Shown: positions 12,645-34,872, counted from the first letter of the stretch. The stretch is DNA of 64,000 bases from Planctomycetota bacterium (GCA_044222185.1 JBGANV010000002.1:868711-932710); one strand, 5' to 3'. Notes: a model not told the origin generated them from the sequence alone. Numbers and translations: made by a program.

Positions 12645-12730
12645 GCGGCCGATTCTATCGTCGACGCGTGACCCGGCGCACGGACGCGAATAGACTGCGC
12701 GCCGCATCACCCGCCAATGGAAGGTCCACC

Positions 12731-15077: not shown

Positions 15078-18000
15078 CTACGGGTACTGCACGAATCCCA
15101 GCGGCAGCGAGGTGATCGCCGGCACGAACGGCACGCACTGCGCTGGCGCGGGCGTCGTGAGGCCGCAGAACGACGGGACGACGTTTCCAGACACCATCAG
15201 GCTTTGCAGCGTCGTGCGCAGCGCATTCGCGGCGGTCAGACCGTGTGCGTTCACGGCGACGCGTACGCGGCCGACGCCGGCTGATCCGCCGTTCGCCGTG
15301 ATCGTGGTGGGAGTCGTACCCTGCGGGGGCCGCCCGCCGATGCCGCCCATGGCGCTGAGTACCTTCACGTTGGACGGCAGCGCAGCCGGAAATTGGGCGT
15401 CGGCGACCGCCCCGATGAAGATCGATCCGCCGGAGCCGGCTCCGCCGCTTCCAGGCGCGCAGAGAACGAGCAGCGGGTCCTGGTTCGGGATCGGGAATGC
15501 GTCGATGCCTCGCTGACCGTCCTCGCCGTTGGCGAAGATGCGGCCGTGGGACCCCAGGGCGAAGATCCGATCCGACAGGAGGACGACGGAGCCTCCGCCG
15601 TTGCCTCCGCGACCACCGATCGAGAGACACGGCACGATGATCGCGAGTGAGCCGCCACCGCCGCCACCACCCGATCCGCCGGCGAAGAACCCGCTGGGGA
15701 ACGCGCTCCCGGACGATGGGAGAAGCGTCGCGAAGTCGCTCGCAGTGGCTCCGAAGATGTCCACGTCGGCAGCCGGTCGACCGGGCGTCGCCGCGGGAAC
15801 GTTGGCGTTGCTTCCGTAGGTGACGCCGGCAGTCGCGGCGAGCGTGGCGCCTGCCTGCCCGGGGAATCCCGGCGTTGCGAACCCGGCACCGGCACCGGCG
15901 CCCGCTTGTCCACCGGTGGGCGATACGCCGAGTCCCCCGCGCCCGCCGGACGGCACGTACGTCGCCGCGCCGGTCGCTCCGCACGGCGTCGTCGTTCCGT
16001 TGGCGAGCAGCTTCTCGCGCTCGCGGTCCATCGGGAAGTACCCACACGATGCCGCCAACTGCGCAGCCGACGCGCCCAGGTTCGGAGACGGGATCACGAG
16101 AGGCAGCGTGGGAAGCACGCGCACGCTGCTCGGTGTCCCGATCACCGGAAGCGTCGCCAATCCCCACGGGTAATAGGCTCCGCCGTGCCCTCCGAGGCCG
16201 CCGCCGGCCGGCGGTCGTTGGAACTCCGTGCGGAAGTAGAAGAGGTGGGGCGACCCGAGGACGTTCGTGCTCGCGTCCGCGAGTGACCCGCCTCCGACGT
16301 TCAGGAGGCCGTCGAAACGAAGATCTCCATGCGACCTGAGAACGAACGGGTAGTTCTGGTCCACCAGGTTGTGGACGTTGAATCCGGCCGTCGAACCGCT
16401 CGCCGTGAATTCCGTCGCCGTGGCTTTGAAGATCACGCGCTTTGGTCCCGCGCTGATCGTTCCGAACGGCGTGTTGACGGAGGTCGCGAGCTGGATGGTC
16501 GCCGGAACGTCGATGGCGTCGAAGTCGAAGATGCGCGGCGACCCGTCATGGCGTCGCGTGTTGAACAAGAAGATGCCGTCGTACATGTTCGACGTGAAGC
16601 AGGGGTTCCCGTTCGCGTTGTCGAGGGCGAAATCCTCGGCCGGGTTCGGGTTCGGGAGGAATGCGAGGCCCTGTCCGACCAGGACGTTCGTCACCGAGGG
16701 ATTCCATTCAGCCAACGCCTGAAGCGCGCAGCGGTCGAGGCGGTGGAAGCGATCCGCCGGGAGCAGCGGAGGAACGGCGTCGAGGCTGTTCGCGGGGTCC
16801 GTGAGTCGCGGGACGACGTCGATCGTGATCGGATTCGAGATGCGGCCGTCCGGGTTGATCACCGTCACGCTGATGGTCGCTGGCGCGGCCAGAGGGAGCG
16901 GAAGATCCGCGATCAGCGTGTTGCCGTCGAGCAGCACGACGCGTGGCGCTACGACCCCGCCGAACATGACGACGGGGACGTTGACCGCTGCCAGTTGCGG
17001 CACGACGCCGAACCCCTGGGAAACGCCGTCAGCGCACGGGGTGGATTCGAGCGAGCACGGAGCCGGGCTGCCGCCCGTTGGCGCTGGGCAGGCCGGCGTC
17101 GTCGGCGACGTCAGGTTGCAGTCGCAGCCGAAGGTATTGGTCGGCGCCGGCAGCGTTCGCGCGAAGAAGTTCGACCCGCAGATCGTGACGGGCGTCGAGA
17201 CGAGCTGCGCGAGAGTCCCTGCGGAGGTCGTGAGAGTGCGCAGCCCGCCGGGTGTGATCACGTTTGGGACCACCGATGCGAGGCTCGGTGGGTTCGCGTC
17301 CTGCACGAGCACGTCCATCTCGTTGCTGGGGAGCTCCGTTTGGTTTCCCGTTCGAACGCAGCGCGGGTTGACAACTCGCAGTCGCTTCACGCCGAGGTAG
17401 GGCCTCCACGCACCCGTCTGGTCGCCGACCGAGGCGGTGACGCTGATCGAGGACGACGACGTGACGCCCGCCGCAGCACCCACCGCGGCGAACAGGGGTT
17501 GCTGCGGGTTTGCCGCGTCGAAGATCTCGGTTCGCGTCTGTGCGAGCACCGACGACTGCTGCGGCACGGTCGGGGCGCCGAACAGCGGGCTGAACCCGGA
17601 GATGAAGTTCGTTCCCGTCAGCGACAACGTCGAGCCCGTGTCGAGGATGACGGGGTAGGACGATGGCCCGCCGAGGACGTTCACGGCAGTGGTCGGCTGC
17701 GCGTTGGTGATGGTCGGCGCCAGCTCGACGTACGTGAGCGTGAACGGAGCCGTCACCTGCTGATCGGGGTTGATGATCTCGAGGGTCACCGGGCCCGTGC
17801 AGTAGGGTGGCGCCTGGATCGTGAGCGTCGTGGGCGTCGGGGTGCCCAAAATGCACGAACCCGCATTCGCGAATGCGCCCGCGGCAGGTGCGAACGTCGT
17901 CGAGGTCCCCGCGCCAACGGGCGTGAACCGGACGCTCGCACCCACGAGGAAGTCCGTCCCCGAGATCGTGATCTGCCCACCCTCGGGTGAGATCGACGCG

Positions 18001-20243
18001 GAGGGAGTGACGGCGCTGATCACAGGCCCGCGTCCCAGGCAGTAAGTGAAATTCACGGGCGCGAAGATCGGCGCGACGGACGGTGGGTTCGTGATGAGCT
18101 GGATCGGGAACGAGCCCACGGTGGATGCCGGCGGGCACGACGGCATGGCCGCGGGCGGGACGACCGCGGTGATCGTCGTGCTGTCGACGACCACGACGTT
18201 CGAACAGGCCACTCCCGCGATCGTGAGCGCGGGGAGGTTGCAGTTCGCCTGCGCCGGGAAGTTGACTCCCGTGAGCGTGAGGAGCGTTCCGCCGGTCTCG
18301 ATGCCGGAGGGGGCTGGCGTTCCGGCGGGGCAGGTGTTGCCGGATGCGACGACGCTCGTGATGACCGGGTCGTCGTACACGAGCGTGGCCTGCGCCGTGC
18401 GCTGCCCGTCGAGGTTGATCACTTCGACGAGAACGTTCCCCGAGCAGAAAGGCGGGGCCGTGACCGTCACCGTCGTCGCCGAGGGGCCCGTGGTGCTACA
18501 TGCGCCGATTGCTGCGAAGGCGGACGGAGGCGGGGAGATGTCGAATACCCCGGTGGGCGGCGGCGGTGTGAATCGCACGATGGCGCCGTTGAGGAAATCC
18601 ACGCCGGAGATCGTAACTGTGGCGCCGTCCGCCGGGACGTGCGACGGCGTGATCGACGTGATCGTCGGCGTGCGGCCCAGGCAGTAGAGGAAGTTCTGCG
18701 GAGCGAGGATCGGCACGGTCGCTGGCGGATTCGTCACGAGCTCGACTGGGAACGATCCGATGGACGTCGACGGTGGACACGAGGGCGTCGGGATCGGCGG
18801 CACCTGGGCGACGATCGCGTTGCTGTTGAGCACGACGACGTTCGTGCAGGCGACGCCGCCGACCGTGATCGACGGCGCGCCGCAATTGGGCTGGGCTGGA
18901 AAGTTGATCCCGGTGATGGTGATGAACGTACCGCCCGTTTCGGCGCCGCTCGGAGTCGGGGATCCGCTCGCGCAATCGTTCCCGGAGGACGTCAGCCCGA
19001 GGATCACGGGTGCGTCGTACTGGAGTGACGTCGAAGCGGAGGCCTGCCCGTCGGGGTTGATCACCTGGACGGCCACGACGCCGGAGCACAGCGGCGGCGC
19101 TTGCAGCGAGACGATCGTCGCCGTCGTCGCCGACGTGGAGCACGCACCGAGGCTCGCGAAGGAGCCGGGCGGAGGCGTCACGTCGACGGGCGCGCCGGGC
19201 GGATTCGTCGGAGTGAACCGCACGATCGCCCCCACGAGGAAGTCGGAGCCGATCAACGTGATCGGTGCTCCGTCCGCGGGGATCGTCGGCGGGAGGATCG
19301 ACCCGATCGCGGGAGTCCGCCCCGAGCAGTACGTGAAGTTGACGGGGGCCGACGCGAACGTCGAGGACGGCGAGAGCGTGGTGTTGTTGCGCACGGCGAC
19401 GGTTGCGGCGCCGGCAGACGTGGCCGGAGGGCAGGTGGCGAACGGCGTCGCGGGAACGATCGCCGTGATCGTGGTCGAGTTCACGACCGTGACGGAGGTG
19501 GCCGGAACGCCTCCGACGAGCACGTCGGGGGGGAACGTGACGGCGTTCGATTGGGCGAGGAAGTTCGTGCCCGTGATCGTGAGCAGAGAGCCGCCCGTCT
19601 CGGGTCCGGACGGAGATGGCGTACCGACCGGGCAGGATCCACTCGATGTGACGCCCGTCACCGCTGGTGGAAAGTTCACCGCCGGATCGACCAACTGGAA
19701 CTCCACGGCGTTGGAGAGGAGGAACGGCGTGGCGCCGCCGGAGCCGTCGTCGCAGATGGCTTGCAACGTCAGCGGGGGGAGGCCCGGCAATGCGAATTGG
19801 GGGTCGAATAGATCGGCGCCGACCGTGATCGCGAACGAGCTTGGACCGGCGATGCCGGGCGCGAAGACCGGGTCGAATGGACGGGAGTACGAATCGATGA
19901 CGAAGAGCGGCGCGGGAGCCGCGTTCGGGTCGATGAAAGCGATGCCCGGGAGCGGCGTGGCGGGAACGAGAACGCCGTTGCAGCTCGCCACGCCGAGCAC
20001 CAGGAGGATCCTCCGCGGAGTGACCCCAGAGAATGGCGAACTGGGTGTCGACGCGAAGGTGAGCGTCAGTGCCTCGGTGCGGACGACGTCGAGGATCAGC
20101 GGGATCGTCGTCGTCGAACACGTCACCGTCGTCGCCGGTGTGAGGTGAGACGGCGACGGAGTCGTCAGGGTCAACGTGAAGGACTGGGCGCACAGGCTCG
20201 CGGAACACAGGGCCGCGAACGCAACGGTCAAGACTCTTCGCAT
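15078..20243 (-). CDS. Giant secreted/surface protein with tandem Cys-containing IPT/TIG domains and Gly-rich C-terminus
   Basis: Signal peptide; repeated GGT..TITG.NF / V.GGV..T.V.V..S..ITA.VP / VINPDGQ units; GGSGGGGGG..GGSI C-terminal block. Confidence 0.85.
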   Translation of the reverse strand: MRRVLTVAFAALCSASLCAQSFTLTLTTPSPSHLTPATTVTCSTTTIPLILDVVRTEALTLTFASTPSSPFSGVTPRRILLVLGVASCNGVLVPATPLPGIAFIDPNAAPAPLFVIDSYSRPFDPVFAPGIAGPSSFAITVGADLFDPQFALPGLPPLTLQAICDDGSGGATPFLLSNAVEFQLVDPAVNFPPAVTGVTSSGSCPVGTPSPSGPETGGSLLTITGTNFLAQSNAVTFPPDVLVGGVPATSVTVVNSTTITAIVPATPFATCPPATSAGAATVAVRNNTTLSPSSTFASAPVNFTYCSGRTPAIGSILPPTIPADGAPITLIGSDFLVGAIVRFTPTNPPGAPVDVTPPPGSFASLGACSTSATTATIVSLQAPPLCSGVVAVQVINPDGQASASTSLQYDAPVILGLTSSGNDCASGSPTPSGAETGGTFITITGINFPAQPNCGAPSITVGGVACTNVVVLNSNAIVAQVPPIPTPSCPPSTSIGSFPVELVTNPPATVPILAPQNFLYCLGRTPTITSITPSHVPADGATVTISGVDFLNGAIVRFTPPPPTGVFDISPPPSAFAAIGACSTTGPSATTVTVTAPPFCSGNVLVEVINLDGQRTAQATLVYDDPVITSVVASGNTCPAGTPAPSGIETGGTLLTLTGVNFPAQANCNLPALTIAGVACSNVVVVDSTTITAVVPPAAMPSCPPASTVGSFPIQLITNPPSVAPIFAPVNFTYCLGRGPVISAVTPSASISPEGGQITISGTDFLVGASVRFTPVGAGTSTTFAPAAGAFANAGSCILGTPTPTTLTIQAPPYCTGPVTLEIINPDQQVTAPFTLTYVELAPTITNAQPTTAVNVLGGPSSYPVILDTGSTLSLTGTNFISGFSPLFGAPTVPQQSSVLAQTRTEIFDAANPQQPLFAAVGAAAGVTSSSSISVTASVGDQTGAWRPYLGVKRLRVVNPRCVRTGNQTELPSNEMDVLVQDANPPSLASVVPNVITPGGLRTLTTSAGTLAQLVSTPVTICGSNFFARTLPAPTNTFGCDCNLTSPTTPACPAPTGGSPAPCSLESTPCADGVSQGFGVVPQLAAVNVPVVMFGGVVAPRVVLLDGNTLIADLPLPLAAPATISVTVINPDGRISNPITIDVVPRLTDPANSLDAVPPLLPADRFHRLDRCALQALAEWNPSVTNVLVGQGLAFLPNPNPAEDFALDNANGNPCFTSNMYDGIFLFNTRRHDGSPRIFDFDAIDVPATIQLATSVNTPFGTISAGPKRVIFKATATEFTASGSTAGFNVHNLVDQNYPFVLRSHGDLRFDGLLNVGGGSLADASTNVLGSPHLFYFRTEFQRPPAGGGLGGHGGAYYPWGLATLPVIGTPSSVRVLPTLPLVIPSPNLGASAAQLAASCGYFPMDREREKLLANGTTTPCGATGAATYVPSGGRGGLGVSPTGGQAGAGAGAGFATPGFPGQAGATLAATAGVTYGSNANVPAATPGRPAADVDIFGATASDFATLLPSSGSAFPSGFFAGGSGGGGGGGSLAIIVPCLSIGGRGGNGGGSVVLLSDRIFALGSHGRIFANGEDGQRGIDAFPIPNQDPLLVLCAPGSGGAGSGGSIFIGAVADAQFPAALPSNVKVLSAMGGIGGRPPQGTTPTTITANGGSAGVGRVRVAVNAHGLTAANALRTTLQSLMVSGNVVPSFCGLTTPAPAQCVPFVPAITSLPLGFVQYP

Positions 20244-23283: not shown

Positions 23284-23614
23284 GCGCCTCTCCCAAGCAA
23301 TCCCGAACGTGGCTTCGGCACGACACCCCCGCCATTGGACGACCGACTCGACCAGCCTTCCCTCGCGGTCGGACGGACCCGACGAGGTCGTCGTGCGGCG
23401 CGCGGGGACGCGACGAGGACTCCAAGCGTTTGCGGCGTCGTATACTATGGCCCTCCTGCGAGCACGGTCAATCGCACAGTGACTGGGTTTGGAGCGTGGG
23501 TGACAGCCCGCGCCCCGGCCGCTTTTGGTGAGATCGTTCCGTGTTATCCAGGGCGCCGCACGCGTGCGTCGACCGGTTCGCTCGGATCTCACACCCGGAA
23601 AACTGGCCCACCGT

Positions 23615-25354
23615 ATGCCCGAGCTCCAAGTCCTGACTGGACCGCTCCAGTGGAAAACCGTCCGATTGGAGGGGTCGCGATTCCTCATCGGGCGGAAGGA
23701 CGGTTGCCATCTCGTGCTCAAGGATGGGTGGGTGTCCCGTGAGCACACGGTCATCATCGAGCCGCAGCCGGGCGAATTCCACGTCCAGGACCTGGACAGC
23801 GAGAACGGCACCTACCTGAATGCGGAGCGGATCCGCGAGCGGGTGATGAAACACGGGGACATTCTCCGCGTCGGCCGTACGGAGATGCGATTCGTTCTGC
23901 GGGCGACTGCAGGCGATCCGGCGTTTCCGCCCCAGGCGAACGTACCGCCACCGCCACCCGCCGCGTCGCCTGCGCCAGGACCGGCGGACGCTCCCAAGCC
24001 TGCACGCGTGTTCGACATGACGCAGACCGTCATCGACAGTCGCATCACCAACGGCCCGCCATCCGACACGCCGCGGATCGATCTTCGCGAGCGCGTTCGG
24101 CGCCTGGAGAGCCGGCTCCATCAGCTGGAGGAGGACAACGCCGCGTTCGCGGCCGAGAACGCCGTGCTCAAGCGCAACTTCGCCCGGATGGGGTTGCTCG
24201 ATCGCACGACCGGTCAGGTGGACGTGTCCCGTTTGACTCCTCAGAGCCGGCCGGTCGTTCCGGAATCGCTCGTGCCGTTCATCTCGAATCCGTCGGCGCA
24301 CATCGCGTTTCCCACGCCTGACGGCGGCGCGGTCGAGCCTGAGACCGTGCGACCCTCGGGGTGCCCGCCGGGGGTCTTGAAGGTGGGCATTTTGGGGATC
24401 GACGGCGCCGGGCAACGTCTGGCCGAGGCTTTTGCACGTCTGGGCTACCTCCGCAACGTCGTTGTGGTTTGCGAACGCGACTCCATGCGCGGCGGCATGA
24501 TCGAGCCTGAGTGGAGGTTGTTCGTCGACGTGCCGGAGCGGGCGCGTGGACCGGCCGATCACCCGCTGAACGCAGTTCTTCCGCGGATCGAGGAAGTCTG
24601 TGCTTCGGCGTTTGCTGGCGCTTGTGACCTCGTGTTCATTTGTTGCGATCTGGCCAGCCCGCTTGCCGCGGACGCCGTATCCATGCTCGCGGGTGTGATC
24701 CGCGGCCACGGGGTCAGGGTTGGCGCGCTGGTCCTGATCGATGACACGGAAGCGGGGCGTGAGCCGCAGAAGGCGGGGCGCGCCGCGGCGACGTGGTCGG
24801 CGCTTCGGGCGGCGAGCGATGCGGGGACGGTTGGCCCGGTAATTGCCGCGGAACGGAGTCGGTTTGGAGCTTCGGCTTCGGGGCCGGGCCGGTCGATGGA
24901 TGATTCGGTGGCGGGCGTCTGCGACGCACTTCTGCGACTACCGGCGATGCCGGGACTGGTGGCGGACTGGGAGCCCTCGCACGCCCGTGAGTGTCTTCTC
25001 GAGCAAGGGTTTGCGACCATGGGACGCGCGGCGTCAAAAGACGCGGGTGAGGATGCGCTCGAGCGTTGCGCTCGGCACGCGATCACCAAGGGTGCCATGT
25101 GCGGGCTGATGCCAGCCTCGCGCGCCCGGTCGGCCTTCGTTTTCGGGATGGTCGGAAGCGAGATCCTGGCCAAGGAGCCTGCTGCGGCAGGCCGGCTGGA
25201 ATCTGCCTTGGAGCGAGTGTCCGGGGATTTGCCCCAGGCGCGACGCCTCCGCGGCGTTTATCAGGACGCAGGACGATGGGTTCGCACGGTGGCGTTTCTG
25301 GGCGGGCAGCCCTTCCCCGAAACGCCTTGGCTCGAGCGTGAGAAGAGGCGCTGA
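23615..25354 (+). CDS. FHA domain + coiled coil + degenerate FtsZ/tubulin-like domain
   Basis: FHA: IGR...VSREH...DLDSENGTYLN...LRVG; C-terminal KVGILGIDGAGQRLAEAF, DLVFICC, GFATMG, RGVYQD...RTVAFLGG follows FtsZ/CetZ secondary-structure order. Confidence 0.7.
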   Translation: MPELQVLTGPLQWKTVRLEGSRFLIGRKDGCHLVLKDGWVSREHTVIIEPQPGEFHVQDLDSENGTYLNAERIRERVMKHGDILRVGRTEMRFVLRATAGDPAFPPQANVPPPPPAASPAPGPADAPKPARVFDMTQTVIDSRITNGPPSDTPRIDLRERVRRLESRLHQLEEDNAAFAAENAVLKRNFARMGLLDRTTGQVDVSRLTPQSRPVVPESLVPFISNPSAHIAFPTPDGGAVEPETVRPSGCPPGVLKVGILGIDGAGQRLAEAFARLGYLRNVVVVCERDSMRGGMIEPEWRLFVDVPERARGPADHPLNAVLPRIEEVCASAFAGACDLVFICCDLASPLAADAVSMLAGVIRGHGVRVGALVLIDDTEAGREPQKAGRAAATWSALRAASDAGTVGPVIAAERSRFGASASGPGRSMDDSVAGVCDALLRLPAMPGLVADWEPSHARECLLEQGFATMGRAASKDAGEDALERCARHAITKGAMCGLMPASRARSAFVFGMVGSEILAKEPAAAGRLESALERVSGDLPQARRLRGVYQDAGRWVRTVAFLGGQPFPETPWLEREKRR

Positions 25355-25414
25355 CGGGGCGCCGCGTGCGAACGCCGAACATGAGGGGCCACATGGGACT
25401 CGCTGGATCACGAC

Positions 25415-26950
25415 ATGGACATCTTGGATCGCGCGGGGGGAGCCCTCCTCGGGATGGCAATCGGCGAGGCGCTCGGCGCACCGCTCGAGGGCCTGACGCA
25501 TGAGCAGGTGCTGAAACGACTGGGGCGGCTGGAGGGATTCGTCGATCCGCGGCGGACGCAGCCTCCTTATCGTTCGGGGTATTTCCAACTCGGCGTGTAC
25601 GAGGACGAGACGCAGATCGCGCTCGCCGCGGCGGAAGTCGCCATCAAGAACAACGGGTTCTCACCGGACCTGTTTCGCGACCGCCTGGATGAGCTCGGAC
25701 AGCCCGTCGACGGCAACGCGTTCGGTTGTTTCCGGCGCGCACGGCGGAACTTCCGCGTTGCCGTCAGGCGCATGCAGAAGGGCGCGACCTGGCAGACCTC
25801 GGGCGTGAACACAGCGGGCAGCGGGGCCGCGAGCCGAGGAATCCCCATCGGGGTCTACTACCACTCCGATCGCGTCCAGCGGACACGCAAGGCGATCGAG
25901 GCGGGCCTCGTCACGCACAAGGACCCGCGAGGAATCGCTGCATCGGTGGCCATGGCGCACGGTACGGCGGTCGCGATGGCTGCCGCGCCGCAGGGCTTCG
26001 ACATCGAGGGGTTCATCAGGACCCTCGTTGCAGAGTGCCGCGAGGCCGAAGACGTGATGGCGGCGGAGTACGGGCAGTATCTGCAGGTGGGTTTCGAGCC
26101 GTTCCTGCACCAGATCTCCGACGGTCTGAAGATGCTGACCGAGCTCGTGACCCTGGACCTCGAGCCCGCGTTCGCGAAGATCGTCGGGTTCGCTCACGGC
26201 AAGGGATCCCGACCGATCACGCAGGCGACGCGTGGCTTCTCTCTGACGGAGCTGCTCACGACGTTCTACTTCTTCCTCACGGGCCTCGATTCGTACGAGG
26301 AAACCGTGCTCGACGTCGTTGCGGAGGGTGGAAGCAGCGATTCGCTCGGTTGCCTCGTGGGCGGACTCCTCGGCGCCTTGCACGGTGCCCGGGGGATCCC
26401 CGATACGTGGCGCGCTCAGCTGAAGAACTCGGACCAGGTCGAGCTGCGCGGGCGAATCCTGGGGGGTGCGCCGCGCGAAGGGTTGAAGTCCCTCCTTCTC
26501 CTCGAGGCAGCACTCACGCAGCCGATTCCGAAGGTCCGGCCCAAGCAGAAGGGGGACGCACAACGCGGTGGTCCGCGTCGCGGCCCTCAACGCGGCGGTG
26601 GCCGAGGCGGGCCGCGAGGGCGGCCGATGCGCGGAGGCCCGCGCGGAGCCGGGGGAGGCCGCGGGGCCCCGAGGGGCGGACCGGGCGGAAGGCGTCCCAT
26701 GGGCGGCCGCGGCGGCGGTCCGGGCCGGGGGCCCGGGGGAGGCGGCATGCGCGGCGGCCCGGGCGGCAGGCCTGGCGGTCGGCCCGGGTATGGTGGCGGA
26801 CCTCGTCCGCCCGGGCGTTCCGGTTACGGTGGCGGCCCCGGGCCGACCCGTCCGCCGTCGGGGGACTGGCCGCCGGCACCCGGGGGCGGTCCCGGCGCGT
26901 CGCCGGATCGGCCCCGGCCGCGTCGGAGTTCCCCTGAGGCACCGGAATGA
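25415..26950 (+). CDS. ADP-ribosylglycohydrolase (DraG/ARH) family protein with long RGG/Gly-Arg-Pro tail
   Basis: GALLGMAIGEALGAP, VTH.DPR, GGSSDS.G..VGGLLGA.HG..GIP..W; tail of RGG/GGPR repeats from ~26560. Confidence 0.82.
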   Translation: MDILDRAGGALLGMAIGEALGAPLEGLTHEQVLKRLGRLEGFVDPRRTQPPYRSGYFQLGVYEDETQIALAAAEVAIKNNGFSPDLFRDRLDELGQPVDGNAFGCFRRARRNFRVAVRRMQKGATWQTSGVNTAGSGAASRGIPIGVYYHSDRVQRTRKAIEAGLVTHKDPRGIAASVAMAHGTAVAMAAAPQGFDIEGFIRTLVAECREAEDVMAAEYGQYLQVGFEPFLHQISDGLKMLTELVTLDLEPAFAKIVGFAHGKGSRPITQATRGFSLTELLTTFYFFLTGLDSYEETVLDVVAEGGSSDSLGCLVGGLLGALHGARGIPDTWRAQLKNSDQVELRGRILGGAPREGLKSLLLLEAALTQPIPKVRPKQKGDAQRGGPRRGPQRGGGRGGPRGRPMRGGPRGAGGGRGAPRGGPGGRRPMGGRGGGPGRGPGGGGMRGGPGGRPGGRPGYGGGPRPPGRSGYGGGPGPTRPPSGDWPPAPGGGPGASPDRPRPRRSSPEAPE

Positions 26951-27960
26951 ACGAGTTCCTGGAGTTCGACCACCAGAGCGACAAGGGCATGGTCCGGTCA
27001 GAGAACCAGGACCGTGCCGGCGTCTGGGTGCCGCCCGCGTTGGACGAGGCGCGAAGGAAGGGCACGCTCTTCGTCGTCTGCGACGGCATGGGTGGTCATA
27101 ACGGCGGAAGCGTCGCGAGCGCGACGACCGTCGACGCATTGCTCGCGAGCTATCGCGAGGGGGACCAGCCAGGTGTGCGCAGCCGCCTCGCGGCTTCGAT
27201 CGACCGTGCGAACGCGGCCGTGCGCGTGAAGGCCGGCGCCGACATCACGCTGCGGAACATGGGAACGACCTGCGTTGCGGTCGCCATCCGAGGGCGTCGC
27301 GCCCAGATCGCACACATCGGGGACAGTCGCGCGTACCTGATACGCGATGGCCGTGCGGAGCAGCTGACGCGCGACCATACCTATCTCAATGATCTCATCG
27401 AGATCGGGTTGCTCACGCCCGAGAAGGCGCGCAATCACCCCGAACGCAACATCATCACGCGGTGCATCGGCATGAGCGATGCGCTGCAGGTCGACTTCTT
27501 GACGCGCGAGATCAAGGTCGGGGACGTCTTCCTGCTCTGCACGGACGGGCTCTACAACTACGTGGAGCCCGAGGAACTGGTGCAGGCGGTGTCGACGGCG
27601 AACGCCAAGGACGCCTGCACGGCGTTGGTGCGCTTTGCGAATCTCCGCGGCGGCGAGGACAACATCACCTGCTTGATCGTGAAGGTGACGAAGGTCGACG
27701 TGGACGCACCGCCCGAGGCGAACGAGGAGACGACGCCGATCTCGGCGCATCCAGTAGTCGCCGCGCCGACACCCGGTGCAGGCACGACGAGTCAGCGAGC
27801 CTCATTCACCCCCGGCACGGATCTCACGCTGATGCGTGAGGTAACTCCGGTGCAGGCGACGCCGCTCCGCAAGCGTTGGTTCCCGCGGGGATGGCTGCTC
27901 CTGATCGTTCTCGAGTCCGTGATTTTGCTCATTTTGGTCGTGGTCAAGTTCTTGTTGTAG
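26947..27960 (+). CDS. PP2C-type Ser/Thr phosphatase (Stp1/PrpC-like) with C-terminal membrane anchor
   Basis: G.VR.ENQD, VCDGMGG, MGTT, HIGDSRAY, LTRDH, LCTDGL, GGEDNIT all intact; hydrophobic C-terminal helix. Confidence 0.92.
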   Translation: MNEFLEFDHQSDKGMVRSENQDRAGVWVPPALDEARRKGTLFVVCDGMGGHNGGSVASATTVDALLASYREGDQPGVRSRLAASIDRANAAVRVKAGADITLRNMGTTCVAVAIRGRRAQIAHIGDSRAYLIRDGRAEQLTRDHTYLNDLIEIGLLTPEKARNHPERNIITRCIGMSDALQVDFLTREIKVGDVFLLCTDGLYNYVEPEELVQAVSTANAKDACTALVRFANLRGGEDNITCLIVKVTKVDVDAPPEANEETTPISAHPVVAAPTPGAGTTSQRASFTPGTDLTLMREVTPVQATPLRKRWFPRGWLLLIVLESVILLILVVVKFLL

Positions 27961-27973
27961 GACCCGTCGACGA

Positions 27974-29548
27974 ATGATCGGCAAGCGAGTTGGACCTTAC
28001 TTGATCGTCGAGGAGATCGGCGACGGCGGCCATGCGTTCGTCTTCAAGGGAATGAAGGACGAAGAGGCCGTTGCCGTCAAGATGCTCAAGCCCTCGGCCG
28101 CAACCGAAGACAACATCGAGAAGCGGTTCATGAACGAGGTGGAGGCGCTTAAGACGCTCGCGCATCCCAATATCGTCGGATTCAAGGACTACATCTATCA
28201 GCCGCCCTATCATTACCTGATTCTCGAGTACATGGACGCTGGCGCGGCCGATCACTTGCTGCGGACGATGGGGCCGCTGGATTCGCGCTATGCGGTCCCG
28301 ATCTTCCACCAGGTCCTGCAGGGGATCATTCACGCACACAGCTTCGGTTATCTGCACCGTGACGTGAAGCCGAACAACATCCTCCTGAACAAGAAGGGGC
28401 AGGCGAAGGTCTCGGATTTCGGCATCGCCAAGGTGTTGGGCGGGGGCGAGCAGCTCACGCGCAAGGGCTTCGTACTCGGCACGACGGCTTACATGGCGCC
28501 CGAGTATCTGACGATGGGGCGCGATACCGAGCAGTTGGACGTGTATGCGCTCGGCATCACGTTCTACGAGCTCGTGACGGCAAGGAAACCGTTTGAATTC
28601 GAACGCGAGGACGAGCCCGTCGCGTCGTTCGTGGCGCGCGTCGCCAAGGGCTCTCCCACGCCGCCCAGTTCCTTCCGTCCGATCCCCGCGGAGCTCGAAC
28701 GGATCATCCTGCGGGCGATCGAGGCCGACCCGAAGAAGCGATACAAGACTGCCGAGAAGCTCCGCGAGGATCTGGACGCGGCGTTCCCCGATCTCGTCGA
28801 GCGTCCGATCCTGATCCAGGCGGGACGCGCGCAAACCAATCTGCTGGCCATACCAGCGACGCCGTCGCAGGACCGCGCGAAGGCCGCGGCCGGGACTGGC
28901 GGACAGCGGAGCGCGTTCTCTGGTCGCGATGTGCCCTTGTTGCTCGCGGCGATCGGCGCAGGTCTGATCGCGTTCCTGTCCTTGCTCATGGCGGCGAAAC
29001 TCGACATGCCCGTATCGGCGGTGGCCGGCCTCGTGGTCATCATCGGCGGGTTCTTTGGGCTTCGTGCCGCGACGCGCGGATCGGGTGCGCGCGAACGTCG
29101 TCCCGCATCGACTGTGGCCCCACCGCCTCGTCCCGCGGTGGCTCAGCCGGAGCCGACGGCGATCTCCGATGTCGAATCGAGCGATCGTGTGCCGTTCGCG
29201 TCGGAATACCACCGCAACACGCCGGCAAAGATGACGGACATCTCCGAGTTGTCCGCGTTCCTTGTGGTGACCGTCGGCTCGGAGAAGGGCAAGCGATTCG
29301 GGCTGCGGCCTGTTTCCCGAATTGGACGTGATCTCCGCTTCGACATCCGGCCACACGACGCCGAGATCTCGCGGCAGCACGCCTGCATCACGTTCGACGG
29401 GGCGCAGTTCACCGTGAAGGATGTCGGTTCTGCGAACGGGACCTTCCTCAACGAGAAGCGGATCACGGGCGAAACGGTGATCAACGACGGCGACATCGTG
29501 CGGGTCGGCCGCACGAGCATGGTCTTCGAACACAAGACAGCGACGTGA
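27974..29548 (+). CDS. Ser/Thr protein kinase with two TM helices and C-terminal FHA domain
   Basis: IGDGG..VFK, VAVK, HRDVKPNN, DFGIAK, GT..YMAPE; FHA IGR...ISRQH...DVGSANGTFLN. Confidence 0.93.
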   Translation: MIGKRVGPYLIVEEIGDGGHAFVFKGMKDEEAVAVKMLKPSAATEDNIEKRFMNEVEALKTLAHPNIVGFKDYIYQPPYHYLILEYMDAGAADHLLRTMGPLDSRYAVPIFHQVLQGIIHAHSFGYLHRDVKPNNILLNKKGQAKVSDFGIAKVLGGGEQLTRKGFVLGTTAYMAPEYLTMGRDTEQLDVYALGITFYELVTARKPFEFEREDEPVASFVARVAKGSPTPPSSFRPIPAELERIILRAIEADPKKRYKTAEKLREDLDAAFPDLVERPILIQAGRAQTNLLAIPATPSQDRAKAAAGTGGQRSAFSGRDVPLLLAAIGAGLIAFLSLLMAAKLDMPVSAVAGLVVIIGGFFGLRAATRGSGARERRPASTVAPPPRPAVAQPEPTAISDVESSDRVPFASEYHRNTPAKMTDISELSAFLVVTVGSEKGKRFGLRPVSRIGRDLRFDIRPHDAEISRQHACITFDGAQFTVKDVGSANGTFLNEKRITGETVINDGDIVRVGRTSMVFEHKTAT

Positions 29549-29604
29549 CGTCGGGCCGGCCCCGGGTACAATCCCCGGCTGATGGAGCCATCCGGACGAT
29601 CGTC

Positions 29605-30183
29605 ATGAAGTGCAGTCTTGCGCTCAGTCTCCTGGCTGTGGTGGTGTCGTTCTGCGGTTGCGCATCCGAGGGCGTCAGGCTCTCGGCCGTTGGCCCCGAC
29701 AATCAACTCTGGCCGCAGGCGCGGTATGCGCTCAACGCGGAAGGTGTGAAGGAGGCCTCCGTGATCGTGGAGGGTTGGGGGCGGTTCGACGATCGCGTGG
29801 ACGGTCGGTCGACCGACACCGTCCGTTTTCGACTGACGGTGGAGAACTCGTCAGAAGATGCAGTGGCGATTCCGCTCGATCGCCTGTCAGCCCAGGATGA
29901 TCTGGGGCACCGGTACATTCACGTGTCGGACTTCCTGCCCGGAGATCAGCATGCTCCCACGTTTCTCGTCCAGCCCGGGCAGCGGACGTCGTTCGAAAGC
30001 ACATTCGATACCGGCGCGCCGGGCAACCTGGACGTGACGGGTGCCATATCCCTCGCGTGGGGTTACAGCTACCGGGGGGCCGCCATCGATCACACCACGC
30101 GCTTCATACCGGTAAGGTATGTGTATCGCCCAGAGCCTGTCTATTTCGGCGTCGGGTTTGGCTATTGGCACCGCTGGCACTGA
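29605..30183 (+). CDS. Putative lipoprotein
   Basis: MKCSLALSLLAVVVSFCGC lipobox-like signal; TACAAT -10-like element upstream. Confidence 0.65.
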   Translation: MKCSLALSLLAVVVSFCGCASEGVRLSAVGPDNQLWPQARYALNAEGVKEASVIVEGWGRFDDRVDGRSTDTVRFRLTVENSSEDAVAIPLDRLSAQDDLGHRYIHVSDFLPGDQHAPTFLVQPGQRTSFESTFDTGAPGNLDVTGAISLAWGYSYRGAAIDHTTRFIPVRYVYRPEPVYFGVGFGYWHRWH

Positions 30184-31938: not shown

Positions 31939-32619
31939 TCAAGCAAGAAAATGCTGACGTCTGTCAATTGCGGTTAGGAATTTCGGCGGTACCGGGTCCG
32001 CACGATCACGAATGCACTCGCATATGGTGTGCGAGTCAGTGCGTAGAACGAGCGACCGCCATTTGTTGGGATAGGCCTGTCGGACAACAAGAAGTCCGAA
32101 CGACAGCGGCGTCATTAGACGCTCGGTTGCCACACGGATCTCGCTATTATGCCCAAAGTGGATATGTGCAGCAGGATGGACGCCAGCCTCGTAAGCGTTT
32201 GGACTGTGATCGTACCGAATTGGAGTAATCGACTCCTTCTGAGGGCACTGAGAAACATGTTCCTGGTACTCGTTCCAATATGCGTCGCGGACGGCATCAA
32301 ATGTCGTGTCGAGAGTCTCGGCCAGGAAGCGCTCATAAGTAGGCGCGTCGATGGGGGACTCGTAATAGCAGTATGTGGCCCCGTCCGATGCGCTTGAACT
32401 CGGTCTAAATAAGAGGAGGGACAAGTCGACGAGGCAGAAGTGAAATAGACGGTTATCTAAGTAATACTTCCACTCCTCGCGATAGCTCTTGCCACGAACC
32501 GTCCGAGGAAGATCACTCGGGTAAGCCACGCGCTCGGTTGCATCAAGTATTAGGTCAAGCGGTTTCAGTACGGCGTCCCGCAGCGTGGCGAGCTGTGTAG
32601 CAAACCGCCCAGGTTTCAT
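31939..32619 (-). CDS. DUF2290 family protein (Helicase-DUF2290 anti-phage system)
   Basis: IRYD...HPAAHIHFG...R signature; ATGA-coupled downstream of an SF1 helicase. Confidence 0.78.
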   Translation of the reverse strand: MKPGRFATQLATLRDAVLKPLDLILDATERVAYPSDLPRTVRGKSYREEWKYYLDNRLFHFCLVDLSLLLFRPSSSASDGATYCYYESPIDAPTYERFLAETLDTTFDAVRDAYWNEYQEHVSQCPQKESITPIRYDHSPNAYEAGVHPAAHIHFGHNSEIRVATERLMTPLSFGLLVVRQAYPNKWRSLVLRTDSHTICECIRDRADPVPPKFLTAIDRRQHFLA

Positions 32620-34733
32620 CGACGCTTCCTCCGGCTTCCGCTACCAGTTGAGCGCTTCACACGAGTGAGACGCGCCTCAATCTCTTCAGGCGTAAGTTCG
32701 GCCATGACCTCGTCAAGCATATGCTCGGCCCGCATTCGACGGCTCTGGCTGTCCACGAGTTCGCGCTGCATGATCTTGAGGTGTTCTTCGCTTGGATAAA
32801 TGAATGAAAGGCGAGGTAAGTGCGACTTGGCTTGTTCGATTTCTGTGCGACACTCTGCCGCCTGTGCCCCCGAGCCGACTACGCGCAGCCACCCCTTTGC
32901 GCGAGTCATCGCCGTAAAGAGCATGTTTCGCTCGCGAACCGTGGGGCGCGGATAAAGGGCCTGCACACTCATCACGTATGCCGCAAAAGCTTCATTGCCC
33001 TTCGCTTTGTGTACCGTAGTGAGTGTTACGTGCTCGTCTTGGCTGAACTCATATTCTCCGAATCCAGCCATGTGAATATTATTGAAGCGAATTCCATGCT
33101 TGCAGAGCATGCTTCCGACGACGGTGAGGTCCGTCTTCGCGTTGCGATCATCCACCGTTATGATCATGATGTCGTCGGCGCGGAGTCCGTCGGATAGATC
33201 GGATCGAATGGACTCGATAATCCACCGCACCTCCTCATTGAAATCGGACGCGACATGAACCTTAACGATGTCATCGACAGGGCTGGCGTTTGATATTGAG
33301 GTAAGCGAATTCTCGCGGGGCCGCTCGACGACAGTCGCAGATCCGGTCACGAAATCGCCCTCTACGACATGATAACCGATGTCTTCCCAATGCTCTCTGT
33401 TCTCCAGCATCTGAACAATCCTGTGTCCGTAAATGCCGAACCCGATGGCGTGCGCGCATACAAGCGCCTCGAGTGGATTACGGTAGCACTTTCGTAGGAC
33501 CGTGTCCCGTTCGAATTCGAGAAGTGCGGTGCCGTCGGCATTTACGCCGAATATTTCAGCTGCAGTCGGGACGCGTGATTGCCAGATGGTCTGCAGTTCA
33601 TCGTAGGCGAGGACGAACTTGTCTTCGCGGCACAGCTGCCGACACAATTGGATAAATGGCGCAGTGAAGTCCTGGCCTTCGTCAATAAGGACATAATCAT
33701 AAATGGGCGTGAGCGTGCCTCTGCCCATAAGGTCGAGGCAGGCCGCCTCGAATGGCTTATCTCGGCTGCGGCGCGAAGCGTCAGCATACGTGAGGGGCGG
33801 AACGTCGAGCGATTTGCACGCGACGTAATACACTCCTGGCCAATTCGCCCCTCCCCACGAGTGCATAACGTGAAGTCGATCCCAGTCCGGATCATGATCG
33901 TCATACTGTCGGTAAAACCGCGTAATTAGTCGGCGGACGTGCTGATATAAGCTCTTGGTGTGAAACGTGTAGAGTATCTTGGCATCGGGATAGCGAAGGT
34001 GCGTGAGCGCGGCCTTCATGGCGAGGACGATGGTCTTTCCGGAACCAGCCAGACCCCTGATGCGCTGAGGACCATCAAACGACGTTAGGTACCCTTCCTT
34101 CTGCTGACGGTCGAAGTTGCATATCTCGGATTCGAGGGCCTGTGCTTGGCTTCCGCGCGAAGCCGGGTTGAGTCCGGGAATGTTGCGCGGTTTTGGTTTC
34201 ATCAACCCTTTCGCGCCTTCGAGAGTCGATTGTATTTCCGCAAGGGCTTCATCGGAAAGCGGTGGACCGGCCAGCTCGGACAGAAACGAGTCCAAGTCGC
34301 TATCCGTTGCGAGAAGTTTGGTCTCAGATGGCCAAGTGAGCGCGGTCATGCGGAGTGCTGGCGCAAAGATCGCGGCATTAAGAGCGAATATGAGGTCCTG
34401 CTTCCCACGCCTAAGGCGGCGATTCTTCAGCATTCGAGCAAAGACGTGGCTGTAGACCTGCTCTAAGGAGGCATCCTCTGATAACAACTGATTGACGTCT
34501 GTCGGTCGCGTCGCTGCGCTTGTCCCGAAAATAAGTAATCCGTGCGTTCGCGTGAGCAGTAACACCTTGGATCGTATCACCCCATTCCCGTCGTCGTCTC
34601 GATATAGCGGGTAATCGAAGTATACGGAGCCGTCAAGGGCAGTCCGATCAGCAACGTCGCGGATGGAATCCAACAACGCTTGCGAGCTCGGGTCCAACGT
34701 CGGGCTGGTTGCGATGTTCTGCTCAAGGGGCAT
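32616..34733 (-). CDS. SF1 (UvrD-like) helicase, partner of DUF2290
   Basis: GLAGSGKT, LIDEGQDF, YDELQ, CYRN, TVHKAKGNE, LFTAMTRAK; ATG 34733 with GGAG RBS. Confidence 0.88.
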   Translation of the reverse strand: MPLEQNIATSPTLDPSSQALLDSIRDVADRTALDGSVYFDYPLYRDDDGNGVIRSKVLLLTRTHGLLIFGTSAATRPTDVNQLLSEDASLEQVYSHVFARMLKNRRLRRGKQDLIFALNAAIFAPALRMTALTWPSETKLLATDSDLDSFLSELAGPPLSDEALAEIQSTLEGAKGLMKPKPRNIPGLNPASRGSQAQALESEICNFDRQQKEGYLTSFDGPQRIRGLAGSGKTIVLAMKAALTHLRYPDAKILYTFHTKSLYQHVRRLITRFYRQYDDHDPDWDRLHVMHSWGGANWPGVYYVACKSLDVPPLTYADASRRSRDKPFEAACLDLMGRGTLTPIYDYVLIDEGQDFTAPFIQLCRQLCREDKFVLAYDELQTIWQSRVPTAAEIFGVNADGTALLEFERDTVLRKCYRNPLEALVCAHAIGFGIYGHRIVQMLENREHWEDIGYHVVEGDFVTGSATVVERPRENSLTSISNASPVDDIVKVHVASDFNEEVRWIIESIRSDLSDGLRADDIMIITVDDRNAKTDLTVVGSMLCKHGIRFNNIHMAGFGEYEFSQDEHVTLTTVHKAKGNEAFAAYVMSVQALYPRPTVRERNMLFTAMTRAKGWLRVVGSGAQAAECRTEIEQAKSHLPRLSFIYPSEEHLKIMQRELVDSQSRRMRAEHMLDEVMAELTPEEIEARLTRVKRSTGSGSRRKRR

Positions 34734-34872
34734 CGAAGCTCCGTTCGGTGGCTCCCATGATAGCGCGCTTCCAAGCGAGGCGGTCGCCCAGAGTCTGCAT
34801 GACTCGACCTCAAGAGCGGACGGGGATGAGGACACGCGCGTCAGCGAGAGCGTTTCTTGTCACAAATCAGAC

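Follow-up and report, generated by a model that had tools for sequence, protein, structure and literature searches.

The stretch analysed here, referred to as the window, is 64,000 nt of DNA from a Planctomycetota bacterium (GCA_044222185.1, JBGANV010000002.1:868711-932710). It lies on contig C6 of a genome of 7.08 Mb in 16 contigs that is 93.8% complete. Open reading frame (ORF) calling places four co-directional genes on the + strand of the window, occupying positions 23615-29548, and these are termed g1 to g4. We read them as a lineage-specific Ser/Thr phospho-signalling module of one uncultured, FtsZ-less order of Planctomycetota, which would include a previously unannotated tubulin pseudo-GTPase. 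Gene order and its conservation, domain identities, fold, the loss or retention of motifs and membrane anchoring were computed. The four genes are as follows.

23615-25354, + strand: g1, 579 amino acids (aa); an FHA domain and, after a linker and a conserved helix, a tubulin/FtsZ-fold domain lacking GTPase motifs (from the ORF, the starts of orthologues and a full-length AlphaFold2 (AF2) model)
25415-26950, + strand: g2, 511 aa; DraG-like ADP-ribosylhydrolase with an Arg/Gly/Pro tail
26947-27960, + strand: g3, 337 aa; Stp1/IreP-type PP2C phosphatase with a C-terminal membrane anchor
27974-29548, + strand: g4, 524 aa; Hanks Ser/Thr kinase with a membrane hairpin and a C-terminal FHA domain

The longest ORF of g1 opens at a TTG (23525); the orthologues begin MAELQVLNG, in agreement with the ATG at 23615. 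From the end of g1 there is a gap of 60 bp to g2, which overlaps g3 by 4 bp (ATGA), and a further gap of 13 bp separates g3 from g4. Co-translation of the genes as an operon is argued from this overlap and the short gaps. An earlier note on this DNA had described four tightly spaced, co-directional genes with an ATGA overlap before the PP2C gene, and the coordinates and spacing bear this out. Its assignment of the products, as an FHA-coiled coil-tubulin-like protein, an ADP-ribosylhydrolase (ARH)-like protein with an RGG tail, a PP2C with a transmembrane anchor and a Ser/Thr kinase with two transmembrane helices and an FHA domain, agrees with the Pfam matches, the AF2 models and the hydrophobicity of the sequences. 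The G+C content of the operon (0.68) is that of the rest of the contig, and falls to 0.55-0.63 directly after g4. The stretch is covered piecewise, with 95-100% identity and no listed indels, by contigs of an independent activated-sludge study (three runs) and of a third study (one run), and the degenerate motifs of g1 described below are therefore not assembly errors.

Starting at its N-terminus, g1 forms an FHA domain (residues 1-95), continues as a linker (98-154) and a helix (157-191), and after a poorly defined stretch ends in the tubulin fold (257-579). The AF2 model of the whole protein has a predicted local distance difference test (pLDDT) of 71. The parts are listed below.

23615-23899, + strand: FHA domain (residues 1-95; Pfam FHA, E 5e-16), with invariant phosphothreonine-binding residues
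23900-24082, + strand: Pro/Ala-rich disordered linker (P 0.27, A 0.17; pLDDT ~30 for residues 98-154)
24083-24187, + strand: conserved long helix (residues 157-191 in the AF2 model), likely a coiled-coil or docking element, with a DRxTGxVD motif after it
24383-25351, + strand: tubulin/FtsZ/TubZ-fold domain (residues 257-579), comprising both the GTPase-like half and the C-terminal half (from AF2, Foldseek, VIA-align, BFVD and profile A3)

The evidence for the tubulin fold is structural in the first instance. Residues 240-579 of g1 were modelled by AF2 from 24 aligned sequences with a pLDDT of 90.9 and a predicted template modelling score of 0.90. Foldseek aligns this model with TubZ (2xkb) at E 3.2e-16 and a template modelling score (TM) of 0.74-0.77, and with dozens of FtsZ chains at ~1e-15. 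In VIA-align the closest structures are CetZ2 (Z 29.9, root-mean-square deviation (rmsd) 3.4, 297 aligned residues) and TubZ (Z 29.3, rmsd 3.6, 321 aligned residues), with FtsZ at Z 26-28; the matches span ~280-320 aligned residues, positions 9-340 of the domain model. The best match in BFVD is a phage protein named FtsZ (E 3.7e-20, TM 0.81). The model thus places g1 in the tubulin/FtsZ superfamily with a complete predicted two-domain fold, and the FtsZ/tubulin-like part recognised in the earlier note stands. It does so despite the lack of support from Pfam, where FHA is the sole match of g1 and PF00091 (Tubulin), PF13809 (Tubulin_2) and TubZ-like_C give nothing at E <= 0.1. The hydrophobic stretch of residues 328-358 was considered as a transmembrane segment and rejected, as it forms the buried S4-H4 core of the tubulin fold in the model. 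Public records name the orthologues of g1 'hypothetical protein' or 'FHA domain-containing protein', and annotation thus does not reveal the tubulin fold.

Homology to tubulins can also be followed in sequence, in two steps. A word-indexed homologue search with the C-terminal part of g1 returned the query alone. An exhaustive HMMER search with the same part against 1.84 billion representatives recovered 36 proteins at E <= 1e-3, and these fall into two groups. The first comprises FHA-fused proteins of 470-680 aa, and the second stand-alone proteins of 353-414 aa (P0029, P0033, P0035, P0037, P0039 and P0040), of which P0029, P0033 and P0037 are matched by g1 at E 1.3e-6 to 1e-4. The Pfam Tubulin cut-off of 33 bits is exceeded by three of these six (P0033 with 37.8, P0037 with 42.0 and P0039 with 43.5 bits), and several of the stand-alone proteins also match TubZ-like_C. 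Compared with solved structures, P0037 matches FtsZ at E 1.6e-10 and RepX/TubZ at E 1.1e-9. In the reverse direction, a profile built from the six stand-alone proteins (A3) matches g1 of the window at E 2.4e-20 over positions 36-365 of 376. The sequence homology of g1 to bona fide tubulins thus appears to be transitive, passing through the stand-alone relatives.

While five of the six stand-alone relatives carry the textbook motifs, namely GAGQ[AC]G (T1), GGAGK[DN] (T3), GLGGGTGSG (T4), VDN and TFDxxD (T7), most of these are absent from g1. The exception among the stand-alone proteins is P0040, in which T3 and T4 are degenerate. In g1 of the window T1 reads GIDGAGQR, T3 (GGAGK) is missing and the DN motif is lost. 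In the same alignment T4 reads DLASPLAAD against GLGGGTGSG of the stand-alone relatives, and T7 reads DWEPSH in the columns where they have TFDGxDF, with replacement of the T7 Asp residues, through which one subunit activates hydrolysis in the next. Among the 18 FHA-fused rows of the alignment T3 is kept in none that spans the region, and a Gly-rich T4 is found in five (P0010, where it reads GLGGATGIG, P0012, P0013, P0014 and P0019). The absence of T3, the altered T4 and the lost DN and T7 Asp residues agree with the earlier description of the tubulin-like active site as degenerate. Judged from these motifs the nucleotide site of g1 is dead, and the protein is a predicted tubulin-fold pseudo-GTPase. 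Because T3, T4, DN and T7 are lost, GTP-driven treadmilling is not expected of g1, and with the nucleotide site gone any assembly of its tubulin fold would therefore be nucleotide-independent.

The nearest relatives of the g1 domain that keep GTPase motifs appear to be phage genes, encoding stand-alone tubulins on viral contigs. Six IMG/VR loci carry such genes on contigs of ~5.7 kb to 208 kb, three of them of 140-208 kb, and on two of these contigs (L028 and L031) portal genes are found within a few kb of the tubulin gene. The G+C content of the viral contigs with this type of tubulin ranges from 0.33 to 0.63, so their hosts are probably diverse. A feature search of the ESM Atlas places viral Tubulin/TubZ clusters on top (score 0.94, 212 of 256 features shared), with a viral share of 77-95% in the leading clusters. 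In an unrooted maximum-likelihood tree a single branch with 100/100 support parts the 18 FHA-fused rows from 12 stand-alone or viral rows, and the unnamed stand-alone proteins group with those of viral contigs, again with 100/100 support. The FHA-fused rows that keep T4 are nearest to the stand-alone group; g1 of the window falls in a starred set of four rows with P0006, P0008 and P0009, all with a degenerate T4. As the tree is unrooted and has no outgroup, it does not establish a direction of transfer from phage to host. No match to P0037 was found by tblastn in the GenBank phage collection, so there is no named phage there with a close relative. In PHROGs g1 has no match, and the stand-alone relatives have weak matches only, to phrog_17961 and, for P0029, to 'tubulin PhuZ' at E 5e-4.

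Two observations on the viral contigs are recorded here. The tubulin-like genes near a portal gene lie at 5908-7080 of L028 and 5743-7059 of L031, and these two contigs are unrelated. On L028 (IMG/VR, 140 kb) the 1332-aa ORF at 450-4448 matches portal models at both ends and HNH endonuclease models at residues ~770-920, and may be a portal gene into which an intein or homing endonuclease has inserted.

No other tubulin was detected alongside g1. PF00091 has no match in the window genome, and it exceeds its cut-off in none of the order's 23 genomes, compared with 13 of 14 controls; the sole sub-threshold match is an orthologue of g1. On 301 genomes sampled across the phylum, profile A3 gives five matches, all of them g1 orthologues in the order of the window genome. 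From these searches g1 would be the only tubulin-superfamily gene detectable in an FtsZ-less lineage.

In the N-terminal part of g1 the FHA domain scores 59.3 bits against PF00498 (cut-off 20.7), and G26 R27, S41 R42 E43 H44 and N64 G65 are invariant in 11 of 11 orthologues. The helix of 35 residues contains D156, R158, R160, R162, E165, L168, E172, A179, E181, N182, V184, K186 and R187 as invariant residues in the same orthologues, and the FHA domain and helix are both very strongly conserved. Just ahead of the helix the linker carries a semi-conserved motif [DE][ML]T, with Thr in that or the adjoining column in 9 of 11 orthologues. Just after the helix is the motif DRxTGx[VI]D, in which TG is kept in 9 of 11 and a hydrophobic residue stands at +3, the position usually read by FHA domains. 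We infer that the threonines of [DE][ML]T and TGxV are candidate phospho-acceptors.

The third and fourth genes encode a phosphatase and a kinase with the following parts.

27877-27957, + strand: C-terminal membrane anchor of g3 (residues 311-337), a hydrophobic segment
Residues 11-263 of g4, + strand: kinase domain (Pkinase PF00069, E 1.8e-54, 185.3 bits)
28922-29074, + strand: membrane hairpin of g4 (residues 317-367), a hydrophobic stretch of 51 residues
29318-29509, + strand: C-terminal FHA domain of g4 (residues 449-512; PF00498, E 6.6e-18, 65.4 bits, cut-off 20.7)

The phosphatase g3 matches Pfam PP2C and passes the Stp1/IreP equivalog NF033484 (245.2 bits, cut-off 230), with DGMGGH, GDSR, TDG and GGEDN all present. 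The kinase g4 has VAVK, HRDVKPNN, DFG and APE, and lies below the PASTA-kinase equivalog (242.5 against 450 bits). The intact kinase and phosphatase motifs claimed at the outset were thus read in both sequences, and the hydrophobic segments agree with the single anchor of the phosphatase and the two transmembrane helices of the kinase. Both proteins look active and appear to be membrane-anchored. As the 51-residue stretch of g4 corresponds to two helices with a very short loop, its kinase and FHA domains would both be cytoplasmic, with no sensor outside the cell. The FHA domain of g4 retains GR, SRQH and NG, so that both FHA domains of the operon (g1 and g4) keep what is predicted to be the phosphothreonine-binding residue set.

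The second gene encodes a two-part protein.

25415-26509, + strand: DraG-like ADP-ribosylhydrolase domain (residues 1-365; PF03747, E 4.3e-47)
26522-26947, + strand: Arg/Gly/Pro tail (residues 370-511), recognised by its composition and seven RGG motifs

The hydrolase domain scores 161.6 bits against PF03747 (ADP_ribosyl_GH; cut-off 26.2) over 286 of 287 model positions. The closest solved structures are MJ1187 (6.4e-20), Tri1 (6dre, 2.2e-12) and DraG (2woc, 2.3e-12), and g2 is below the NCBIfam equivalog cut-offs of both DraG (TIGR02662, 83.1 against 337 bits) and Tri1 (NF041672, 58.3 against 490 bits). The orthologous group is tight, with 28 proteins at E <= 3.3e-101 and the next match at 3.8e-39. 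The catalytic residues of DraG are given as E28, D60 and D97 in Table 2 of PMC8120803; in the HMMER alignment, corrected for a 5-residue offset in chain numbering, they align with E25, D64 and D99 of g2. Position 99 in seven orthologues read from their loci is Asp in two, Glu in four and Val in one. Neighbouring ligand motifs are altered, TDDT to EDET and GGDxDT to GGSSDS (GGSxD[ST] in the subfamily), and these changes are conserved in the subfamily, although GGDADT is retained by one orthologue (L013). In the alignment of the group Y62, T66, Q67, G305, G306 and D309 are invariant and E63 and D64 nearly so. The 'degenerate ARH active site' of the earlier note therefore holds for the metal-ligand motifs and fails for the Glu-Asp-Asp triad. 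Since the triad is kept and only secondary metal-ligand positions differ, g2 is not clearly inactive; the site is probably specialised and still functional rather than dead, and g2 may be an enzyme rather than a mere binder of ADP-ribose.

The tail of g2 comprises 142 aa (R 0.18, G 0.37, P 0.23) with a net charge of +24, and its seven RGG motifs agree with the RGG tail first reported. Tails of 51-166 aa with R 0.18-0.28, G 0.18-0.35 and P 0.09-0.30 are found in six of the seven orthologues read from loci, while the seventh (L015), at a contig end, has a different tail. The 28 close homologues measure 301-558 aa, and all but that of 301 aa have at least 416 aa, compared with ~365 aa for the domain alone. 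The window genome has no second PF03747 match. Neither the operon nor a search of the genome with the ADPrib_exo_Tox model revealed an ADP-ribosyltransferase; a search with the DRAT model was also blank, and is uninformative because its control was blank in every genome too. Complex prediction for the g1 tubulin-like domain with the g2 hydrolase domain gave a score of 0.00 and a mark of 0.32, which weighs neither way. With DraG and Tri1 g2 shares the family PF03747 and the triad, and it differs from them in EDET, GGSxD[ST] and the unique Arg/Gly/Pro tail, and in that no cognate transferase was found. PMC8120803 describes how the ADP-ribosyltransferase toxin Tre1 modifies Arg174 of FtsZ and how the DraG-like Tri1 removes the mark. 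Tri1 thus acts on a tubulin-fold protein, and g2 adjoins a tubulin-fold gene.

The association of these genes extends beyond the window. Homologues of the g1 domain were found in 10 of 61 relatives, all inside the order of the window genome, where they amount to 10 of 23 genomes and are distributed over all four families; at least one very diverged form of g1 exists in addition. The order g1-g2-g3-g4 is complete in five of nine other loci (L009, L011, L012, L013 and L014), and in two more the contig ends after g2 (L010 and L015). The remaining two (L016 and L017, genus g11 of family f2) have g1, PP2C and kinase without the hydrolase. In every locus where it occurs, g1 is directly upstream of the PP2C-kinase pair or of the hydrolase. 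A search with the closer alignment A2 returned only the loci already found and one FHA-only match in a metagenome-assembled genome of Myxococcota.

Full-length kinase-FHA orthologues with 52-58% identity are present in 17 of the 23 genomes of the order, and hydrolase orthologues in 12, including none of the nine of family f2. Some genomes retain only part of the set. In G017 (L039) the hydrolase and PP2C directly follow a TIG gene (described below) and g1 is gone; in G004 (L041) the hydrolase adjoins a homologue of window gene 12353-14584, and g1 is lacking along with the two TIG genes. In family f2 an FHA-helix protein with a shorter and more degenerate C-terminal part precedes PP2C and kinase in G005 and G020. 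Both were missed by the profile hidden Markov model of the g1 domain; hhalign links the G005 protein to g1 with 99.9% probability in an alignment that includes FHA and helix, and the G020 protein is judged from its FHA match and position only. Nothing resembling g1 or the hydrolase was found upstream of the kinase in G010 and G012.

Loss of synteny in related genomes, the outcome that was to speak against the four-gene operon, was looked for and is not what these loci display: the genes form a conserved unit, and a functional link is therefore likely. The linkage proposed in the earlier note stands, but the four genes can occur apart, with unequal counts of kinase (17 of 23), hydrolase (12 of 23) and g1 (10 of 23). 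The kinase-phosphatase pair appears to be the core, with g1 and the hydrolase as separable additions that are attached in most, though not all, lineages.

Two further features of the related loci were observed. In L041 (G004:C385, 256-7999), from a small-genome relative in the same family, the hydrolase lies beside homologues of window genes 12353-14584, 11157-12710, 8878-10173 and 7844-8851. An extra FHA ORF is situated just beyond the kinase in L009 (14060-14347), L011 (2705-2992), L012 (3380-3664), L016 (13507-13749), L017 (3109-3285) and L040 (2931-3197), on the opposite strand in the first five, and the window has no counterpart at that position.

The operon is flanked upstream by divergent genes and a shared intergenic region.

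15078-20243 and 20257 to ~23320, - strand: two giant secreted proteins with IPT/TIG repeats (Pfam TIG, E 7.7e-32 and 1.8e-12) and signal-peptide-like N-termini
23320-23614, no strand: intergenic region separating g1 from the divergent TIG gene upstream, presumed from the gene layout to be a shared promoter region; the left boundary is approximate

The two TIG proteins (1721 aa and ~1000 aa) have repeated IPT/TIG domains and Gly-rich C-terminal regions, and are transcribed divergently from g1. In the second gene the longest ORF opens with ~160 residues that are an artefact, read antisense to g1. The intergenic region contains one promoter-like site on the minus strand (23471-23442), which is weak evidence. 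TIG homologues are found beside the cluster in six loci (L009, L010, L012, L013, L015 and L039), and the membership of these proteins in the system is uncertain. DNA near-identical to window 23300-29700 (~95-100%, with few substitutions and no listed indels) occurs in activated-sludge and bioreactor metagenomes from several studies.

Downstream of g4 nothing is common to the window and the related loci. A small ORF on the + strand at 29545-30183 (likely start 29605) begins with a lipoprotein-type signal (MKCSLALSLLAVVVSFCGC). It has no Pfam match and no counterpart in the related loci, and as nothing beyond g4 is conserved it is not counted as a fifth gene of the operon. At 31939-34835 on the - strand, 2.4 kb downstream of the operon, the genes of a DUF2290 protein (226 aa) and a UvrD-like helicase of 739 aa overlap by 4 bp. 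Their matches in PADLOC are the models 'DUF2290' (E 9.3e-13) and 'Helicase' (E 7.2e-146). The pair lies in a low-G+C stretch of ~29.6-35 kb (0.55-0.60, against 0.68 around it) and is probably an inserted two-gene defence system.

How these components might work together can be proposed as follows; the direction of phosphorylation, assembly through FHA domains, behaviour as a polymer or scaffold and the process served in the cell are what we infer. We judge it about an even chance that FHA domains read a Ser/Thr phospho-switch which, at the membrane, gates a tubulin-fold scaffold independent of nucleotide. The core would be the membrane Hanks kinase g4 with its own cytoplasmic FHA domain, paired with the tail-anchored PP2C g3, neither of which appears to have an extracytoplasmic sensor. 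The kinase would phosphorylate itself and the linker threonines of g1, in [DE][ML]T before the helix and TGxV after it, and the FHA domains of g1 and g4 would read the phosphothreonines. By this means g1 would be brought to the membrane kinase, or g1 molecules would be linked to one another by the helix and by FHA-phosphothreonine contacts, or both. Phosphorylation would then take over the role that GTP has in ordinary tubulins, and the PP2C would reset the system. The main client would be g1, its fold probably coming from the same branch as the phage-borne tubulins. The hydrolase g2 would be a second client or an effector, tethered by its Arg/Gly/Pro tail to an acidic partner or nucleic acid; alternatively it may erase ADP-ribose from g1 or another client, for which Tre1/Tri1 is a precedent, or be a second phospho-client. 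The module may serve morphogenesis, of the envelope or in connection with division, or it may help to deploy the giant surface proteins encoded next to it.

Several observations weigh against a phosphorylation-gated scaffold. The tubulin-like domain is the fastest-evolving part of the system, with 24-42% identity to the window in nine loci; in the seven that have the hydrolase it is 28-42%, where the hydrolase has 44-60%, the kinase domain 59-65% and the g1 FHA domain 58-73%. Such fast evolution fits a relic under relaxed constraint as well as it fits a scaffold. The components appear to be separable, since the hydrolase is found without g1 (L039 and L041), g1 without the hydrolase (L016 and L017) and the kinase alone (G010 and G012), and g1 may therefore be only one of several substrates. 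Lastly, the phage-gene relatives and the defence-type pair next door leave a role in conflict open.

In a different reading, which we think unlikely, the kinase and phosphatase would be a generic housekeeping pair and g1 a decaying relic, its domain a binding module or functionless, with the hydrolase acting independently (for example on small ADP-ribose metabolites), or else the real target would be export or display of the TIG proteins. The greater frequency of the kinase, the loci without g1 or hydrolase, the progressive decay of the motifs with shortening of the g1 domain in family f2, and the conservation of the TIG genes as divergent neighbours are consistent with it. The g1 fold is, however, predicted with very high confidence from only 24 sequences, and the reading frame is intact in every g1 orthologue recovered whole; together these argue for selection for a folded g1 domain. 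The very strong conservation of FHA and helix, the invariable position of g1 directly upstream of the PP2C-kinase pair or the hydrolase, and the 4 bp overlap and short gaps of an apparent operon stand against it too.

A role in conflict is rather more doubtful. In this reading g1 is an anti-phage decoy, a domesticated, dead phage tubulin that co-assembles with phage filaments or caps them, a subunit without T7 blocking further growth; the FHA domains, kinase and phosphatase would sense or signal, and the hydrolase would counter or exploit ADP-ribosylation by the phage. The placing of its nearest domain relatives on viral contigs (by the six IMG/VR loci, the portal genes of L028 and L031, the ESM Atlas, BFVD and the tree), the loss of T7 and nucleotide motifs, the fast evolution of the domain, its patchy distribution inside the order and the PADLOC-matching pair 2.4 kb downstream are consistent with this. 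But PADLOC-DB 2.0 gives 0 matches for g1 and g2 and generic kinase-domain matches for g4 (PD-T4-6, mad6 and Stk2); g3 matches the candidate family PDC-M21C at 1.4e-15. The operon has the G+C content of the genome (0.68), unlike the neighbouring island (0.55-0.63), and the same upstream TIG neighbours are kept in three of the four families of the order, which is unusual for mobile defence islands and indicates vertical descent. Moreover, the matches of profile A3 across the phylum are confined to g1 orthologues in this order, and the unrooted tree leaves a phage-to-host direction not shown. In a related and similarly doubtful history, a phage-type tubulin captured by an ancestor of the order would have been fused to FHA and rewired into a phosphorylation-gated, nucleotide-free polymer or filament cap, with an ADP-ribosylhydrolase partner, serving either as a host cytoskeletal element at the membrane or as a poison of phage filaments.

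Very unlikely, finally, is a circuit in which g2 removes arginine-ADP-ribose (added by a toxin, a phage enzyme or a host transferase) from g1 or from its own Arg-rich tail, with phosphorylation as a second layer: the DraG/Tri1-like structure (6dre 2.2e-12, DraG 2.3e-12) with its triad kept, the position of g2 directly after g1 in seven of nine other g1 loci, its being the only such hydrolase of the genome and the precedent of FtsZ as target and Tri1 as eraser (PMC8120803) speak for it, but there is no transferase in the operon and no ADPrib_exo_Tox match in the genome, hydrolase and g1 each persist without the other, and two metal-ligand positions of g2 are altered.

The operon and its proteins can be compared with several known systems. 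The TubZ/PhuZ tubulins (2xka, 2xkb, 3m89, 4ei7 and 3v3t) share with g1 the full-length two-domain fold (Z 29.3, TM 0.74-0.77), and the stand-alone viral tubulins share detectable sequence homology, with TubZ-like_C matches on the side of the viral relatives. In contrast to TubZ/PhuZ, g1 has no T3, T4, DN or T7, is fused to an FHA domain and helix, and has a chromosomal gene, in an operon with a kinase and a phosphatase where no TubR/tubC-like partner was seen. With FtsZ and CetZ it has the fold in common, but only 13-19% identity, no GTPase motifs and no evident C-terminal FtsA/ZipA-binding peptide; nothing ties g1 to division genes.

In its logic the operon resembles three systems, this pathway and the next two. 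The threonine-phosphorylation pathway of type VI secretion (PpkA, PppA and Fha1/TagH) uses a membrane kinase and a PP2C to toggle an FHA scaffold that nucleates a large machine. The TagH model gives 36 bits against a cut-off of 120, the g4 kinase has no periplasmic domain, and no type VI secretion genes were seen among the window ORFs examined. In the actinobacterial FhaA/FhaB(FipA)-PstP-PknA/PknB cluster FHA proteins are encoded beside PP2C and membrane Hanks kinases. FhaB/FipA is the best NCBIfam match of the g1 FHA domain, but at 70.8 bits against a cut-off of 125. Unlike the actinobacterial cluster, the operon lacks RodA/PbpA genes, its kinase carries no PASTA sensor, and its FHA domain is fused to a tubulin-fold protein. 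PMC2797604, which reports a link between FipA and FtsZ, is marked RETRACTED and we draw no support from it.

In the haloarchaeal 'Halo_FHA' ESCRT loci described by Makarova et al. 2024 (PMC10936438), FHA is fused to a CdvA-like domain with Ser/Thr kinases and phosphatases nearby. They resemble the operon in placing FHA on a cytoskeletal or membrane-remodelling scaffold, and differ in using ESCRT/CdvA rather than tubulin, in belonging to archaea rather than Planctomycetota and in having no hydrolase. Within bacteria, FtsZl1 (Tubulin_2) is described in PMC2875224 as having a planctomycete clade with kinases in some neighbourhoods and an association with vWA proteins, and as keeping its nucleotide-binding motifs without recognisable T6-H7 elements or a tubulin-type C-terminal domain. 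The pattern in g1 is the opposite, a complete fold with dead motifs, and g1 has no Tubulin_2 match. Tubulin-like domains fused to cytoplasmic kinases are reported from Planctomycetota (PMC11032199), whereas g1 would be coupled to its kinase through FHA in trans and not by fusion. No description of an FHA-tubulin fusion or of this operon was found in the literature, in line with the statement at the outset that the system was not recognised as a described one; supplementary gene lists on FtsZ-like genes and kinase architectures might mention relatives.

To our knowledge FtsZ takes no part in the division of Planctomycetota, and little is known about how their envelope and division are organised. 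The clade concerned is a narrow one of uncultured organisms, and whatever goes further than anatomy and conservation is conditional. About half of the genomes of the order keep what is predicted to be a complete tubulin/FtsZ fold without GTPase motifs, wired to a kinase, a phosphatase and FHA readers. The kinship with phage tubulins raises the question of exchange of cytoskeletal genes between host and phage, and the neighbouring DraG-like hydrolase echoes the control of FtsZ by ADP-ribosylation. Should the domain still assemble, it would exemplify a pseudo-GTPase maintained by selection, and a tubulin-fold scaffold that responds to phosphorylation in place of nucleotide would be a new mode of regulation in a much-studied cytoskeletal superfamily.

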